This document shows, piece after piece, positions 1,223 to 12,348 of a stretch of DNA of 64,000 bases. The translations under genes and the position numbers were made by a program. Location of the stretch: assembly GCF_054482525.1 (NCBI RefSeq), contig NZ_CM137006.1. One strand, 5' to 3'. The notes beneath the pieces were generated by a model. The model saw only the letters and a list, made by a program, of their open reading frames with translations. It did not search any database and was not told the origin of the DNA. The first letter of the stretch is position 1. Each line of letters opens with the position of its first letter.

Positions 1223-3505
1223 ATGTCCGAGCTTAATGAAAAGTTAGCCACAGCCTGGGAAGGTTTTACCAAAGGTGACTGGCAGAATGAAGTAAACGTC
1301 CGTGACTTCATTCAGAAAAACTACACTCCGTACGAGGGTGACGAGTCCTTCCTGGCTGGCGCTACTGAAGCGACCACCACCCTGTGGGACAAAGTAATGG
1401 AAGGCGTTAAACTGGAAAACCGCACTCACGCGCCAGTTGACTTTGACACCGCTGTTGCTTCCACCATCACCTCTCACGACGCTGGCTACATCAACAAAGC
1501 GTTGGAAAAAGTTGTTGGTCTGCAGACTGAAGCTCCGCTGAAACGTGCTCTTATCCCGTTCGGTGGTATCAAAATGATCGAAGGTTCCTGCAAAGCGTAC
1601 AACCGCGAACTGGACCCGATGATCAAAAAAATCTTCACTGAATACCGTAAAACTCACAACCAGGGCGTGTTCGACGTTTACACTCCGGACATCCTGCGTT
1701 GCCGTAAATCCGGTGTTCTGACCGGTCTGCCAGATGCTTATGGCCGTGGTCGTATCATCGGTGACTACCGTCGCGTTGCGCTGTACGGTATCGACTACCT
1801 GATGAAAGACAAACTTGCACAGTTCACCTCTCTGCAGGCTGATCTGGAAAACGGCGTAAACCTGGAACAGACTATCCGTCTGCGCGAAGAAATCGCTGAA
1901 CAGCACCGCGCTCTGGGTCAGATGAAAGAAATGGCTGCGAAATACGGCTACGACATCTCTGGTCCGGCTACCAACGCTCAGGAAGCTATCCAGTGGACTT
2001 ACTTTGGCTACCTGGCTGCTGTTAAGTCTCAGAACGGTGCTGCAATGTCCTTCGGTCGTACCTCCACCTTCCTGGATGTGTACATCGAACGTGACCTGAA
2101 AGCTGGCAAGATCACCGAACAAGAAGCGCAGGAAATGGTTGACCACCTGGTCATGAAACTGCGTATGGTTCGCTTCCTGCGTACTCCGGAATACGATGAA
2201 CTGTTCTCTGGCGACCCGATCTGGGCAACCGAATCTATCGGTGGTATGGGCCTCGACGGTCGTACCCTGGTTACCAAAAACAGCTTCCGTTTCCTGAACA
2301 CCCTGTACACCATGGGTCCGTCTCCGGAACCGAACATGACCATTCTGTGGTCTGAAAAACTGCCGCTGAACTTCAAGAAATTCGCCGCTAAAGTGTCCAT
2401 CGACACCTCTTCTCTGCAGTATGAGAACGATGACCTGATGCGTCCGGACTTCAACAACGATGACTACGCTATCGCTTGCTGCGTAAGCCCGATGATCGTT
2501 GGTAAACAAATGCAGTTCTTCGGTGCGCGTGCAAACCTGGCGAAAACCATGCTGTACGCAATCAACGGCGGCGTTGACGAAAAACTGAAAATGCAGGTTG
2601 GTCCGAAGTCTGAGCCGATCAAAGGCGATCTCCTGAACTACGATGAAGTGATGGAGCGCATGGATCACTTCATGGACTGGCTGGCTAAACAGTACATCAC
2701 TGCACTGAACATCATCCACTACATGCACGACAAGTACAGCTACGAAGCCTCTCTGATGGCGCTGCACGACCGTGACGTTATCCGCACCATGGCGTGTGGT
2801 ATCGCTGGTCTGTCCGTTGCTGCTGACTCCCTGTCTGCAATCAAATATGCGAAAGTTAAACCGATTCGTGACGAAGACGGTCTGGCTATCGACTTCGAAA
2901 TCGAAGGCGAATACCCGCAGTTTGGTAACAACGATCCGCGTGTAGATGACCTGGCTGTTGACCTGGTAGAACGTTTCATGAAGAAAATTCAGAAACTGCA
3001 CACCTACCGTGACGCTATCCCGACTCAGTCTGTTCTGACCATCACTTCTAACGTTGTGTATGGTAAGAAAACTGGTAACACCCCAGACGGTCGTCGTGCT
3101 GGCGCGCCGTTCGGACCGGGTGCTAACCCGATGCACGGTCGTGACCAGAAAGGTGCAGTAGCCTCTCTGACTTCCGTTGCTAAACTGCCGTTTGCTTACG
3201 CTAAAGATGGTATCTCCTACACCTTCTCTATCGTTCCGAACGCACTGGGTAAAGACGACGAAGTTCGTAAGACCAACCTGGCTGGTCTGATGGATGGTTA
3301 CTTCCACCACGAAGCATCCATCGAAGGTGGTCAGCACCTGAACGTTAACGTGATGAACCGTGAAATGCTGCTCGACGCGATGGAAAACCCAGAAAAATAT
3401 CCGCAGCTGACCATCCGTGTATCTGGCTACGCAGTACGTTTCAACTCGCTGACTAAAGAACAGCAGCAGGACGTTATTACTCGTACCTTCACTCAATCTA
3501 TGTAA
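1223..3505 (+). CDS. pflB: Pyruvate formate-lyase (760 aa)
   Basis: [31 protein letters not shown]... and C-terminal glycyl-radical region [29 protein letters not shown]; SD-like AAGAAGGTAGG upstream. Confidence 0.97.
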
Positions 3506-3547
3506 TTAGATTTGACTGAAATCGTACAGTAAAAAGCGTACAATAAA

Positions 3548-3573
3548 GGCTCCACGAAAGTGGGGCCTTTTTT
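3548..3573 (+). terminator. Rho-independent terminator downstream of pflB (GGCTCCACgaaaGTGGGGCC + T-run)
   Basis: GC-rich hairpin followed by TTTTTT immediately after the pflB stop. Confidence 0.55.
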
Positions 3574-3696
3574 AGCACGAGAGCCTTTTTTGTCAGCTAT
3601 CTATACTTTAAGGTGACTGCCAAAACAGACTCGACGTAGCCTTCGAGCTGCGCACCAACACGGCCTCAGATGGGCCACATCTGGAGAAACACCGCA

Positions 3697-4437
3697 ATGT
3701 CAGTTATTGGTCGCATTCACTCCTTTGAATCCTGTGGAACCGTAGACGGCCCGGGTATTCGCTTTATCACCTTTTTCCAGGGCTGCCTGATGCGCTGCCT
3801 GTATTGTCATAACCGCGACACCTGGGACACGCATGGCGGTAAAGAAGTTACCGTTGAAGATTTGATGAAAGAGGTGGTGACCTATCGCCACTTTATGAAC
3901 GCTTCCGGCGGCGGCGTTACCGCATCCGGCGGTGAAGCAATCCTGCAAGCTGAGTTTGTTCGTGACTGGTTCCGCGCCTGCAAAAAAGAAGGCATTCATA
4001 CCTGTCTGGATACCAACGGTTTTGTTCGTCGTTACGATCCGGTGATTGATGAACTGCTGGAAGTAACCGACCTGGTAATGCTCGATCTCAAACAGATGAA
4101 CGACGAGATCCACCAAAATCTGGTTGGAGTTTCCAACCACCGCACGCTGGAGTTTGCTAAATATCTGGCGAATAAAAATGTGAAGGTGTGGATCCGCTAC
4201 GTTGTTGTCCCAGGCTGGTCTGACGATGACGATTCAGCGCATCGCCTCGGTGAATTTACCCGTGATATGGGCAACGTTGAGAAAATCGAGCTTCTCCCCT
4301 ACCACGAACTGGGCAAACACAAATGGGTGGCGATGGGTGAAGAATACAAACTCGATGGTGTTAAACCACCGAAGAAAGAGACCATGGAACGCGTGAAAGG
4401 CATTCTTGAGCAGTACGGTCATAAGGTAATGTTCTAA
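3697..4437 (+). CDS. pflA: Pyruvate formate-lyase activating enzyme (radical SAM, 246 aa)
   Basis: [44 protein letters not shown] with CxxxCxxC radical-SAM motif; start taken at the internal ATG of ORF 3670-4437. Confidence 0.95.
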
Positions 4438-4449
4438 TTTCCCCGTAAA

Positions 4450-4480
4450 GCGGCAACTTTTTTGAGTTGCCGCCTTTTTA
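4450..4480. terminator. Hairpin terminator between convergent pflA and ycaM (GCGGCAAC...GTTGCCGC with flanking T/A runs)
   Basis: Inverted repeat flanked by T-runs, positioned between two convergent stop codons. Confidence 0.5.
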
Positions 4481-4646
4481 TTCCGCGCTGCATAAATAAT
4501 TCAGAGCTCTATTTCTAACGCCCTTACAGCACAGCTTCCAAATGTATTACCCAAACCGCCAGTATATGTCCTGCGGCTTGCGCGCATTTCTCGATTATGT
4601 AAAAACGGGTCAGATCTGCCAGAGTCAGCGTCACCGACCACAATAA

Positions 4647-6077
4647 TTATTTGCTATTCGCTTTACGCGCCAGCAGCGGGAATATCAGCCCTAATCCTAC
4701 CAGCACAAACGGCGTTGCAACATTCAGCGCCAACTGGAATGTCCACTCTGCGGTGAAGGCTTCCATTTTTGGGAAAATACCAGTCAGGCAGGCAAAAGCG
4801 GTAAAGGCAAAACACCAAATTCCGACGGTCATTGCCAGCGGCTTATTACGAATAAAGACATATTCCGGCTTATATTTCTGCGCCAGGCGAACAACTGCAA
4901 TAAATGCAACAAATACCCATAAATAACGCAGCGGCATCACTACCGAGTTAAGATTCAACAGCCATTTATAGAGATTGTTCATATCACCAATGCCGAGAGT
5001 CGGTAGCATTATCAGGATCGCCACCAGCGCCAGGGTCAGAAAATAGCCATTAACGGGCGTACCAGAAGCGTTGGTACGACATAAACTGGCTGGAATATAT
5101 TTGCTGTCAGCATCGCCTAATAACACTTTAAGCGGCGCATCAATCGAGAATACCAGCGCAGCTACTTGTCCCAGGGTATTCGCAATGGCATAAATCACCA
5201 TTAAAGTATTACCCATGTTGTAATACTCGCCCAGCTTCTGAAAGGCGTAATACTGACCGTTAGTCATTAAGTCATCCGGGATATTACGCGAGTCAAACAT
5301 CATCCCCATCGCCAGTGAGCCCAGAATGGCACAAACCGCAACCATCACCGCCAGGCATAACATCCCTTTTGGAAATTCTTTTCCTGGGTTGCGCGTTTGA
5401 TTAACATAAGGAGAAATCTTCTCTGCTCCGCCAACCGCGAAAACCAGCATTGAAATAGTGGTAATGTAGGTAAAGTCGATATGAGGAATGAACGTTTCCC
5501 AGGTAATGTTTGTGGTCGCAATATGCACTTCAGTAATCGCAGGCGCGGTTACCGCCATCGCCACATACAGGAGCGACATAACAAACATCGCAATCCCTGC
5601 CACAGAACCGACGATTTTCAGCGATTTCATACCGCGTGAAGCAACCCACATAAAGAAGACAAACAGCACCAGCGTTAACCCCTGTAACGCTACGACTGAA
5701 TATTCTTTGATTAGCGAACCGTCGCCTTTCATCGCCCAACCGAGCGCAATCAGTATTGCCTGGGGTTTTTGTGCCAGATAGGGAATATGCACTACCCAGT
5801 AGGTCCACGCGGCGAGGTAAGCCAGTCCGGGTCCCATCGTGTGTTTAATCCAGGTACTGACCCCGCCCTTCCCATCTTTGAAGGTCGAGCCTAACTGACC
5901 AACAATTAGCGCATAAGGTGTGAAATAGAGCGCAAAGATAAACACCCATGAAAAAACAACCACCAGCCCCTGGTTGGCGTAGTTATTAACAACGTTGCCA
6001 AAACCCCAGACAGTGATAAAAGACATCAGCGCAATGTTGTACCATCGCAGCTGTTTTTCCTGAACATTCCCAGCCAT
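4647..6077 (-). CDS. ycaM: APC-superfamily transporter YcaM (476 aa)
   Basis: MAGNVQEKQLRWYNIALMSFITVWGFGNVVNNYANQG..., polytopic membrane protein; start at the internal ATG of ORF 4647-6269. Confidence 0.85.
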   Translation of the reverse strand: MAGNVQEKQLRWYNIALMSFITVWGFGNVVNNYANQGLVVVFSWVFIFALYFTPYALIVGQLGSTFKDGKGGVSTWIKHTMGPGLAYLAAWTYWVVHIPYLAQKPQAILIALGWAMKGDGSLIKEYSVVALQGLTLVLFVFFMWVASRGMKSLKIVGSVAGIAMFVMSLLYVAMAVTAPAITEVHIATTNITWETFIPHIDFTYITTISMLVFAVGGAEKISPYVNQTRNPGKEFPKGMLCLAVMVAVCAILGSLAMGMMFDSRNIPDDLMTNGQYYAFQKLGEYYNMGNTLMVIYAIANTLGQVAALVFSIDAPLKVLLGDADSKYIPASLCRTNASGTPVNGYFLTLALVAILIMLPTLGIGDMNNLYKWLLNLNSVVMPLRYLWVFVAFIAVVRLAQKYKPEYVFIRNKPLAMTVGIWCFAFTAFACLTGIFPKMEAFTAEWTFQLALNVATPFVLVGLGLIFPLLARKANSK

Positions 6078-6286
6078 AGACAAATCCTTCGCCAAAATTA
6101 AAGGGGCATCTGTAAAACGAGGGATTATGCGCGGCAAATAAGAAGTGCGGAAATAGCGAAATGCAAAATTATAACCTGCTGCACATTTTATTTTGAAACG
6201 AATAAAATTTTGAAAAAAGCAAGTCAGATAGAAGAAACAAAAAAGCAGAGTGTGAAACAGTAAGTTCACACTCTGCGTTAATTCAT

Positions 6287-7435
6287 TTACACGTGAGCAA
6301 CGGGTTTCGGCGTATGACCGGCGTTGCGAAGCAGCATCAGCAAATAGATAAACGATACGCTGGCGATCATGATAAACAATAAATTATCGGAGAAATTCTG
6401 CATTAGCATAGCGGTAAATGACGGGCCAAGCAGACTTCCCACGGTATAGCTCAACAGTAAGGCCTGGTTCATCGCCACCAGTTGATGATGTTCAACTTTC
6501 TCACAAGCCCAGGCCATCGCCACCGGATATAGCGTAAAGCCAGCGGCACCGAGGATGAATAACGCAGGGGCCATCGCCGCCTGGCTAAGCATCGCGATAC
6601 TGCCGAGAATGACGACAAAGACCTGAACACGCAACACCAGCAGTCGACCAAACTTATCCGCCAGACGTCCAATCGGCCATTGTCCGAGGATACCCGCACT
6701 GACCAGTACCGCCATCCAGAAACCAATGCTGGCATTGCTCACCCCTTTGTGATTGAGGTACAGCGGCATCAGGCCATATAGAGATCCCAGAACGATTCCT
6801 GAGATAATGCAGCCATTCACGCCAAGCCGCGCCTGACGGAGTTTTAGCATTGCCGTAATTGACGTCGAATCATGATTTTCAGCCTCCTGATTCAGGACAC
6901 GCGTAAACAACAGCGGTAAGATCCCTGCCAATGTCAAACCTGTAACCCACGGCAATACGCTCATCAGCTCGGTTGAAACTTTGCTGACCAGTAACTGGCC
7001 TAAAAACGTTCCCACGTAATAAATCATCATATACGCAGCAAGCAAACGCCCACGGTTACGTGACGTCCCACTGCACATCAGCGCGCTCTCAACAACCACC
7101 CAAATCATGGCACAGCCGACGCCGGCGACAAAACGCCAAGCCAACCAGCTCCAGAATCCAATCATCAGGCCAAGGCCGGCACAGCCAGCGGCAAAAATGA
7201 AGGAGGCCAGATAATAGCTGCGGTTAAAGCCAATGCGCTTAATGACATACCCTGTCAGCAATGTACCGACCAGGTTGCCGGTAAAATAGGATGAGCTGAC
7301 GACGCCTACCTGCCATGTGGACATGTGTTCCTGGGCGAGCCAAAGCGGCACGAGTGTATTTAACACTGCGATCGCCAGAGTCAACAAAAGCAGGCCAGAC
7401 AGCAAAAGCATGACAGGCCGGGTATACGTGGACAT
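6287..7435 (-). CDS. ycaD: MFS transporter YcaD (382 aa)
   Basis: [46 protein letters not shown]...; 12-TM MFS-like hydropathy. Confidence 0.88.
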
Positions 7436-9903: not shown

Positions 9904-12348
9904 TTACACCTTTTCAACCTGAACCAGGTTTGTATGTGACGGATTCCCCTTAGCGAGAGGAGACGGACGTTGAGTGGTCAGTACGTTAATACAACCGCCC
10001 TTATCGACACGTTTTGCATCCGGGTCATACCAGGCACCTTCACCCAGTGCGACCACACCCGGCATCATTCGTGGCGTCACTTTCGCCTCAATATGAACTT
10101 CACCACGGTCGTTAAAGATCCTGACCTTATCGCCGTTGTTGATACCGCGTTTTTGTGCATCAAGCGGGTTGATCCACATTTCCTGACGGCAAGCTGCTTT
10201 CAGCACATCAACGTTGCCGTAAGTTGAGTGAACGCGAGATTTGTAGTGGAAGCCAGTAAGCTGCAGCGGATATTGTTTGTTCAGCGGATCCTGATAACTT
10301 TCAAAGCCCGGCGTATAGATCGGCAGTGGATCGATCACATCGCCTTCTGGCAATTCCCAGGTAGCGGCAATGTCAGCCAGCGCCTGCGAATAAATCTCAA
10401 TTTTACCCGATGGCGTGGTCAGTGGATTTGCCTGCGGATCTTCACGGAAGGCTTTATAAGCAACGTGATGCCCTTGTGGGTCGCGCTTTTTAAAGATCCC
10501 CTGCTTGCGGAACTCTTCAAACGTTGGCAGTTCAGGAATCGCTTCCCGCGACTGGGCATACAGATGCCGCATCCACTCTTCCTGTGTACGGCCTTCAGTG
10601 AACTGTTGCTCAACGCCAAGACGTTTTGCCAGTTCGCTGGTCATCTCATAGATGGTCTTACATTCAAAGCGCGGTTTAATCACCTGATCGTTGAAAATCA
10701 CGTAAGACATATTCCCGCAGGATGCATCCAGTGCAAAGTCCATCTGTTCGGAAGCGGTGCAGTCAGGCAGCAGGATGTCAGCATATTTCGCCGATGAAGT
10801 CATGTGGCAGTCGATAACCACAATCAGCTCGCACTTCTTATCATCCTGAAGGATTTCATGGGTACGGTTGATTTCAGAATGCTGGTTAATCAGGCAGTTA
10901 CCAGCATAGTTCCAGATCATTTTGATCGGCACATCCAGCTTATCTTTCCCGCGCACCCCATCACGCAGCGCCGTCATTTCCGGGCCACGTTCAATGGCAT
11001 CGGTCCACATAAACATAGAAATGCTGGTCTGGATCGGGTTTTCGAGGGTCGGCATACGGACAAACGGTAAGCTGTATGAACCTTCACGCGCGCCGCTGTT
11101 GCCCCCGTTAATACCAACGTTACCGGTCAGAATCGCCAGCATCGAGATAGCACGGGTTGCGATTTCACCGTTAGCGTGACGCTGCGGGCCCCATCCCTGG
11201 CTGATAAACGCCGGTTTGGTACTACCGATTTCACGAGCCAATTTGATGATTTTGTCTGCCGGAACACCGGTGATTTGCGAGGCCCATTCCGGCGTTTTAG
11301 CCACGCCATCTGGCCCTTCACCCAGAATATAAGCTTTATAGTGACCATTTTTCGGCGCACTGGCTGGCAGTGTTTTCTCGTCGTAGCCAACGCAATATTT
11401 ATCGAGGAATGCCTGATCCACCAGGTTTTCGGTGATCATGACATACGCCAGACCGTTAACCAGTGCGGCATCTGTTCCCGGACGAATAGGGATCCACTCA
11501 TCTTCGCGCCCGGCACCGGTGTCGGTATAGCGCGGATCGATGATGATCATGCGAGCATTAGATTTCTGGCGCGCCTGTTCAAGATAGTAAGTCACCCCAC
11601 CGCCACTCATTCGCGTTTCGCCAGGGTTATTACCAAACAGCACTACCAGTTTACTGTTTTCGATATCCGACGGGCTGTTACCATCTGCCCAGCCGCCGTA
11701 GGTATAGTTCAAACCTTCCGCAATTTGCGCGGAAGAGTAGTCACCGTAATGGTTCAGATAACCGCCGCAGCAGTTCATCAGGCGCGCGACCAGGGTATTT
11801 CCCGGCGGCCAGGAGCGGGTCATGGTGCCGCCCAGCGTACCGGTACCATAGTTCAGATAGATAGACTCGTTGCCGTACTCTTTGATCAGGCGCTGCATAT
11901 TGGTCGCGATGATGTCGTAGGCTTCTTCCCAGCTAATGCGCTCGAATTTGCCTTCACCGCGCGCCCCGACTCGTTTCATCGGATATTTCAGGCGGTCCGG
12001 ATTATAGACACGGCGACGCATGGAACGCCCACGCAAACAGGCGCGAACCTGGTGCAGGCCGTCGTAATTGTCATCGCCGGTATTGTCCGTTTCGACATAT
12101 TTGATTTCACCGTCCACGACGTGCATACGTAGCGGGCAGCGACTACCACAGTTAACTGTACAGGCGCTCCAGATAACCTTTTCGTCTGATTTTGTTGGAA
12201 TGGCGCTATCGACAGCGTGCGCAATCCGACTAAAAGGTAATGTTAATGCGCTGCTGGCCATTGCCAGGCCGCCGATCGCTGTCGTTTTTACCAAACCACG
12301 GCGACTCACCTCAGCAGCCAATACCGCATCAGGGATTTTCGTTTTCAT
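9904..12348 (-). CDS. dmsA: DMSO reductase catalytic molybdopterin subunit DmsA (814 aa)
   Basis: Tat-type twin-arginine leader (SRRGLVKTTAIGGLAMASSALTLPF) and molybdopterin oxidoreductase body. Confidence 0.95.
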   Translation of the reverse strand: MKTKIPDAVLAAEVSRRGLVKTTAIGGLAMASSALTLPFSRIAHAVDSAIPTKSDEKVIWSACTVNCGSRCPLRMHVVDGEIKYVETDNTGDDNYDGLHQVRACLRGRSMRRRVYNPDRLKYPMKRVGARGEGKFERISWEEAYDIIATNMQRLIKEYGNESIYLNYGTGTLGGTMTRSWPPGNTLVARLMNCCGGYLNHYGDYSSAQIAEGLNYTYGGWADGNSPSDIENSKLVVLFGNNPGETRMSGGGVTYYLEQARQKSNARMIIIDPRYTDTGAGREDEWIPIRPGTDAALVNGLAYVMITENLVDQAFLDKYCVGYDEKTLPASAPKNGHYKAYILGEGPDGVAKTPEWASQITGVPADKIIKLAREIGSTKPAFISQGWGPQRHANGEIATRAISMLAILTGNVGINGGNSGAREGSYSLPFVRMPTLENPIQTSISMFMWTDAIERGPEMTALRDGVRGKDKLDVPIKMIWNYAGNCLINQHSEINRTHEILQDDKKCELIVVIDCHMTSSAKYADILLPDCTASEQMDFALDASCGNMSYVIFNDQVIKPRFECKTIYEMTSELAKRLGVEQQFTEGRTQEEWMRHLYAQSREAIPELPTFEEFRKQGIFKKRDPQGHHVAYKAFREDPQANPLTTPSGKIEIYSQALADIAATWELPEGDVIDPLPIYTPGFESYQDPLNKQYPLQLTGFHYKSRVHSTYGNVDVLKAACRQEMWINPLDAQKRGINNGDKVRIFNDRGEVHIEAKVTPRMMPGVVALGEGAWYDPDAKRVDKGGCINVLTTQRPSPLAKGNPSHTNLVQVEKV

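Follow-up and report, generated by a model that had tools for sequence, protein, structure and literature searches.

The 209 bp that separate the convergent stop codons of pflA and ycaM (positions 4438-4646 of the window, that is, of the whole 64,000-nt stretch of contig NZ_CM137006.1, assembly GCF_054482525.1, analysed here) are very probably the scar of a deletion of about 1,476 bp, which would have arisen within E. coli in an ancestor with the K-12-like order pflA-ycaK-ycaN-ycaM. The window state is an ordinary, already-annotated deletion polymorphism of K-island type.

On the left of the spacer, focA, pflB (1223-3505) and pflA (3697-4437) all lie on the plus strand. The pflA gene, for the pyruvate formate-lyase 1 activating enzyme, is intact (246 aa), and its product carries the RefSeq accession WP_000111043.1 both in K-12 and in E. 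coli SCU-102, the closest complete genome, which is 100% identical over 1,301 nt. SCU-102 belongs to phylogroup D, ST973 (PMC11251922), and its RefSeq annotation gives the order pflA, a 111-nt pseudogene described as 'missing N-terminus', and ycaM, corresponding to window positions 3697-4437, 4536-4646 and 4647-6077. On the right, ycaM (4647-6077, minus strand) encodes an intact APC-family amino-acid permease of 476 aa, as supported by its open reading frame, RefSeq and the Pfam domain AA_permease_2, and is followed by the MFS transporter gene ycaD (6287-7435, minus strand), which anchors the variable interval on this side, by ycaC and then by dmsCBA. Mechanical gene calling extended ycaM to 540 aa from an upstream GTG (4647-6269, minus strand); given the 476-aa annotation with its start at 6077 in both K-12 and SCU-102, this extension was rejected as an ORF-calling artefact. 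The original prediction, made from the window sequence, had described convergent pflA and ycaM ends about 210 bp apart with a terminator hairpin in the gap, and this was borne out. The genes end at 4437 and 4647, and a terminator scan predicted an intrinsic terminator for pflA on the plus strand at 4450-4483, in which a hairpin with a 10-bp stem and a 4-nt loop just 3′ of the gene (4450-4473, GCGGCAACTTTTTTGAGTTGCCGC) is followed by the T-run CTTTTTATTC. A MAFFT alignment showed this hairpin to be kept in K-12 and in all Escherichia outgroups. Elsewhere in the window the sole tRNA gene is a tRNA-Ser(GGA) at 27453-27540, a position that we take to be consistent with that of K-12 serW downstream of the dms-ycaC region. 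Apart from a stretch of 40.7% GC at 42-44 kb, no composition anomaly stood out in the window.

The K-12 gene order given in the original prediction is correct: annotation of K-12 places ycaK (minus strand), encoding an NAD(P)H oxidoreductase with a flavodoxin-like fold, and ycaN (plus strand), encoding a LysR-type regulator, between pflA and ycaM (minus strand), the stop codons of ycaN and ycaM lying side by side. In the pairwise comparison with K-12 that the original prediction had proposed as a check, BLAST homology stopped at window position 4493 and restarted at 4534, an interval occupied by about 1.5 kb in K-12 and by 40 nt in the window, and the flanks (pflB-pflA on one side, ycaM-ycaD-ycaC-dmsC on the other) were collinear. 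The deletion junction falls between 4533 and 4534. Missing at this point are K-12 positions 3525-5000 (locus L001), 1,476 bp to which ycaK contributes 581 of its 591 bp, ycaN 796 of its 909 bp, and the divergent promoter region between them the remaining 99 bp. The predicted absence of ycaK and ycaN was therefore right for nearly all of both genes and needs amending at their 3′ ends, where stubs of 10 nt (ycaK) and 113 nt (ycaN) persist. The first of these (4524-4533, minus strand), identified by MAFFT, consists of the stop codon and about two further codons and reads TTACAGCACA in the window against TTATAGTGCA in K-12, where the ycaK stop lies at 3515-3517 of locus L001. The second (4534-4646, plus strand) is a pseudogene identical to K-12 ycaN at 110 of 113 nt; it retains 36 codons and the stop in the old reading frame, ending in YYPNRQYMSCGLRAFLDYVKTGQICQSQRHRPQ before the stop (translation ending in RAFLDYVKTGQICQSQRHRPQ), and has the expected orientation and position, abutting the ycaM stop at 4646/4647. 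RefSeq annotates it as 'incomplete; missing N-terminus' in SCU-102, O157:H7 and AR_0077. Intact YcaN has a helix-turn-helix (Pfam HTH_1) at residues 7-63 and a LysR substrate-binding domain at residues 91-290; the stub lacks the former and most of the latter, keeping the last 36 codons. No further copy of it occurs in the window or in the compared loci.

Since stubs of both genes remain, the window state is a deletion and not an unoccupied ancestral site. The converse polarity, in which direct adjacency of pflA and ycaM is ancestral and ycaK-ycaN were later acquired by K-12 through insertion or horizontal transfer, was weighed against an outgroup survey in which one genome of each species was scanned with ycaD as the anchor. 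In many genera of Enterobacteriaceae ycaD adjoins pflA, and Salmonella, many Citrobacter, Kluyvera and Yokenella have the order ycaD-ycaM-pflA with a terminator spacer of 50-150 bp and neither ycaK-ycaN nor a stub. The same order without ycaK-ycaN is found in all non-coli Escherichia sampled, namely E. albertii (L007) and three others (L004, L005 and L008), and the K-12 ycaK-ycaN segment is slightly lower in GC than its flanks (44.7% versus 47-52%). These observations would suit a gain in K-12, yet 3′ stubs of both genes in their proper order and orientation are impossible at an empty site, the ycaN stub matches K-12 (97%) just as well as the flanking core genes do, and ycaN 3′ stubs are also present in E. 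albertii and the other three non-coli Escherichia, which dates the pair to before Escherichia diversified. A gain in K-12 is accordingly very unlikely. From the stubs in non-coli Escherichia it follows that ycaK-ycaN was present early in the genus and has repeatedly been lost since; the pair may well have been inserted earlier, in the Escherichia ancestor, with the window state a secondary loss. The K-12 pflA-ycaM interval contains no annotated integrase or tRNA, and the tRNA of the window lies 23 kb away. In a separate observation, the distantly related Enterobacteriaceae bacterium 89 (L058, 10100-11667) carries a divergent pair of ycaN-like (68% aa identity) and ycaK-like (60% aa identity) genes beside pflA in the K-12 orientation, with no ycaM, and the pair may thus be an old resident of the site outside Escherichia.

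Between the BLAST-aligned flanks lies the 40-nt patch at 4494-4533, whose first 30 nt (4494-4523) form a diverged pflA-ycaK spacer and whose match to K-12 was non-significant. The patch aligns to the spacer of E. albertii at 32 of 41 positions, a score reached by none of 2,000 shuffles, and with 29 identities each to those of L004 and L008 (p=0.0005). Since the E. albertii and L004/L008 spacers themselves align clearly to their K-12 counterpart, the patch is native sequence: foreign filler was rejected on the multi-species alignment and the shuffle tests in favour of a diverged native spacer plus the end of ycaK.

The relation of the patch to other species bears on the age of the deletion. At least two different junctions occur among the non-coli Escherichia. 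In the MAFFT alignment the E. albertii junction occupies the same columns as that of the window and the L004/L008 junction lies 5-11 nt away, whereas in L005, the closest outgroup, the ycaN stub is 41 nt longer than that of the window and the ycaK stub 8 nt shorter. The allele could on these grounds be very old, shared with E. albertii and other Escherichia by descent or inter-species recombination, the full-length ycaK-ycaN of phylogroups A/B1 being then a long-lived polymorphism or a re-import. Because the window spacer is closer to E. albertii than to K-12 and the junction columns coincide, a much older shared origin keeps some weight, and it would also accommodate the ycaN stub core described below, which differs from E. 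albertii at only 3 of 62 positions, and the identity of L004 (about 10850-10930) and L008 (about 10845-10925) at 78 of 78 nt over the pflA-side spacer, ycaK stub and junction. Such an origin is nevertheless unlikely. The tail of the ycaN stub differs from K-12 at 0 of 39 positions and from E. albertii at 15 of 37, and the nucleotide identity of ycaM is 97.0% with K-12 against 84.8% with E. albertii; a tandem near-repeat at the K-12 breakpoint (GCGTCCAG followed by GCTTCCAG) makes the position of the E. albertii junction ambiguous; and the clearly different L005 junction implies an independent deletion, so that such events do happen. A deletion inside E. coli is favoured over an allele shared with E. 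albertii because the flanks and stub tail of the window are those of an ordinary E. coli, which also led us to reject introgression from E. albertii for the flanking genes and the stub tail. Against a deletion inside E. coli, the full-length allele was observed in part of that species alone and in none of the sampled non-coli Escherichia, so that several independent losses are required. L004 and L008 are different species, only 84% identical in ycaD and 92% in ycaM and diverged on either side of the 78 nt, and their shared tract points to constraint or to a short recombination tract. A search of the complete E. coli genome collection found no close relatives of locus L004.

The distribution of the deletion within the species was determined in 5,426 complete E. 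coli genomes, with the window allele detected by a 91-nt probe across the junction. Every probe match was full length, and the window-type junction was found in 1,023 genomes (∼19%), whose flanks differ by up to about 2.8%; in no genome of the 5,426 did the window-type spacer occur together with an intact ycaK. Collapse or misjoining of the region during assembly or sequencing, for which no supporting point emerged, is extremely improbable in view of this recurrence in 1,023 independent complete genomes and of the consistent annotation. The junction is base-for-base identical in SCU-102, O157:H7 PV15-279 and AR_0077, and in O145:H28 strains pflA, a truncated ycaN fragment and ycaM fall inside one match of about 400 nt. 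The deletion thus reaches across at least phylogroup D, represented by SCU-102, and the O157:H7/O145:H28 lineage, phylogroups having been assigned for a few named strains only. The full-length allele, pflA-ycaK-ycaN-ycaM-ycaD, is carried by 3,318-3,341 genomes, including K-12, O111:H8 and O121, so that the possibility against which the original prediction had guarded, that K-12 or most E. coli also have pflA directly beside ycaM, does not apply. A larger deletion, in which pflA is joined to ycaD with loss of ycaK, ycaN and ycaM, is found in 1,047 genomes, among them the type strain ATCC 11775. A fourth allele, with an island of about 12.7 kb (bcsC-bcsB-bcsA-GGDEF-EAL) beside a divergent ycaM, was seen in E7-1N7, at most about 15 genomes being left unassigned. 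The expectation of a strain-specific indel in conserved backbone was thus correct as to the indel and the collinear backbone and wrong as to strain specificity: because 1,023 of 5,426 complete genomes share the junction, it is a lineage-level polymorphism at a multi-allelic hotspot.

Several of the other alleles were inspected individually. In the larger deletion of THO-003 (L003, 8539-8634), window position 4479 is joined to about 6243, placing pflA directly against the ycaD terminator, and the junction reads GCCGCTTTTTT, GTGCACAG, AAAAGCAGAGTG, of which 8-12 nt match the start of IS200C. TB06052 (L086, 796-1506) has an otherwise window-type junction with a 711-bp IS200C immediately after the T-run of the pflA terminator; its insertion point, 4479/4480 in window coordinates, is the exact left breakpoint of the larger deletion. 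These coincidences suggest that the larger pflA-ycaD deletion was IS200-associated, with AAAA microhomology. In E7-1N7 (L088, 8770-20230) a second cellulose synthase cluster (bcsC, bcsB, bcsA) together with GGDEF and EAL-CHASE9 genes lies between pflA and a divergent ycaM (92% identity), and there is no ycaN stub. An EAL/GGDEF pair also follows ycaM in 'E. coli' E69 (L006, 9726-13418), a GTDB species representative whose ycaD, ycaM and ycaC show only 88-90% identity to E. coli.

Comparison of the window junction with K-12 revealed no IS remnant and no clear microhomology; all 209 bp of the spacer align to native Escherichia sequence, and the window contains no IS200C end motif, arguing against an IS- or transposon-mediated origin. 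For the deletion within E. coli we therefore favour, as the probable mechanism, simple illegitimate recombination or slippage, although the same lack of microhomology or of a mobile-element trace counts against this account. Starting from a K-12-like pflA-ycaK-ycaN-ycaM ancestor, a single event would have taken out ycaK except for its extreme 3′ end, the promoter region shared by the two divergent genes, and 88% of ycaN from its 5′ end. The deletion would be old within the species, the allele having by now reached fixation in large lineages (strains of phylogroup D, for example SCU-102, and the O157:H7/O145:H28 lineage), and its end-points may have been limited by the pflA terminator on one side and by ycaM 3′-end signals within the ycaN stub on the other.

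The proposal of such signals derives from the conservation of the stub. A core at 4545-4607 is unusually conserved: between the window and E. albertii it is about 95% identical, with differences at 3 of 62 positions, although 53% of ycaM fourfold sites differ, and between the window and other Escherichia 10-12% of positions differ, compared with 15-28% at ycaM fourfold sites. The last 93 nt of the stub do not differ among K-12, O157:H7, AR_0077 and the window. Past coding constraint was rejected as the cause of the core conservation, since both E. albertii substitutions in the alignment alter the second base of a codon and third bases are unchanged. Small open reading frames in the stub were likewise rejected, a plus-strand ATG at 4541 and a 39-codon antisense frame being absent or disrupted in other species, and Rfam covariance models gave no match at E≤1 over window positions 4300-4800.

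On the minus strand the core comprises a U-tract and, in a consensus fold, a 10-bp hairpin at 4552-4580. The same fold predicted a candidate ycaM terminator at 4599-4639 (minus strand), consisting of a hairpin at 4608-4639 (GGUCGG...CUGACC) followed by CGUUUUUAC (U5). In the consensus of six Escherichia sequences this ycaM-stop hairpin is largely kept despite sequence divergence of 30-40%; of its nine pairs, four are disrupted, each in one or two of the sequences. Folded alone it is weak (ΔG -8 to -15 kcal/mol, z -2.3 to +1.0) and for three of the five distinct sequences its stability does not exceed that of shuffles, and it was missed by the simple terminator scan that found the pflA hairpin. 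A σ70-like match, by consensus only, was also noted inside the stub at 4594-4622 on the minus strand (CTGGCA, 17 nt, CATAAT); it points towards pflA, with its -10 hexamer in the conserved core.

Since the ycaM and ycaN stops abut, any ycaM 3′ UTR runs through the ycaN stub. We tentatively propose that the core and the ycaM-stop hairpin form a functional element, under purifying selection at the nucleotide level whether or not ycaN is intact, and that this would most likely be a ycaM 3′ UTR/terminator or, failing that, a small minus-strand transcript. If true, this would account for the fact that ycaK-ycaN deletions with at least two independent origins in Escherichia all spare 95-155 nt next to the ycaM stop. 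On this reasonable but tentative view, 3′-end signals of ycaM would reside in the stub and limit the reach of deletions.

Loss of ycaN may have regulatory consequences. In K-12, a ycaN knockout changed the expression of ycaC, ycaD and focA, and formate utilisation was lost or impaired in a phenotype array (PMC9068703). Carriers of the deletion would be expected to lack YcaN-dependent regulation and YcaK activity. Altogether about 39% of complete E. coli genomes are without ycaN (19% window-type, 19% with the larger deletion), as are all other Escherichia sampled as regards an intact copy, and for this reason regulatory-network models built on K-12 are not applicable to this locus in O157:H7, phylogroup D or ATCC 11775-like strains. 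It offers a clear example of how an interval flanked by two convergent terminators can be eroded repeatedly and come to have several alleles, which will be unsurprising to specialists.

Four known systems offer comparisons. The IS-associated pflA-ycaD deletion affects the same locus and likewise removes ycaK-ycaN, but its junction contains GTGCACAG(AAAA), the first 8-12 nt of the TB06052 IS200C, whereas the window junction is free of IS sequence. Partial-deletion pseudogenes are annotated by PGAP as 'incomplete; partial in the middle of a contig; missing N-terminus', exactly as is the ycaN stub, although the stub, chiefly in its core of about 60 nt, is more conserved than expected of a neutral remnant. 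In K-12, ycaM-ycaN is listed as a convergent excludon in an RNA-seq analysis with ExcludonFinder (PMC12288877). The abutting stops of that pair are preserved in the window, but with the ycaN promoter and 5′ end lost a convergent ycaN transcript is not expected, and the mutual interference of the excludon would be inoperative. A further parallel is with the K-islands, known from the EDL933/MG1655 comparison (summarised in PMC2907692) as K-12 segments missing from O157:H7 in the common backbone. Like these, ycaK-ycaN is K-12 DNA absent, at a collinear position, from both O157:H7 and the window. The difference is that the polarity can be read here, both stubs indicating loss in the non-K-12 lineage rather than gain in K-12.
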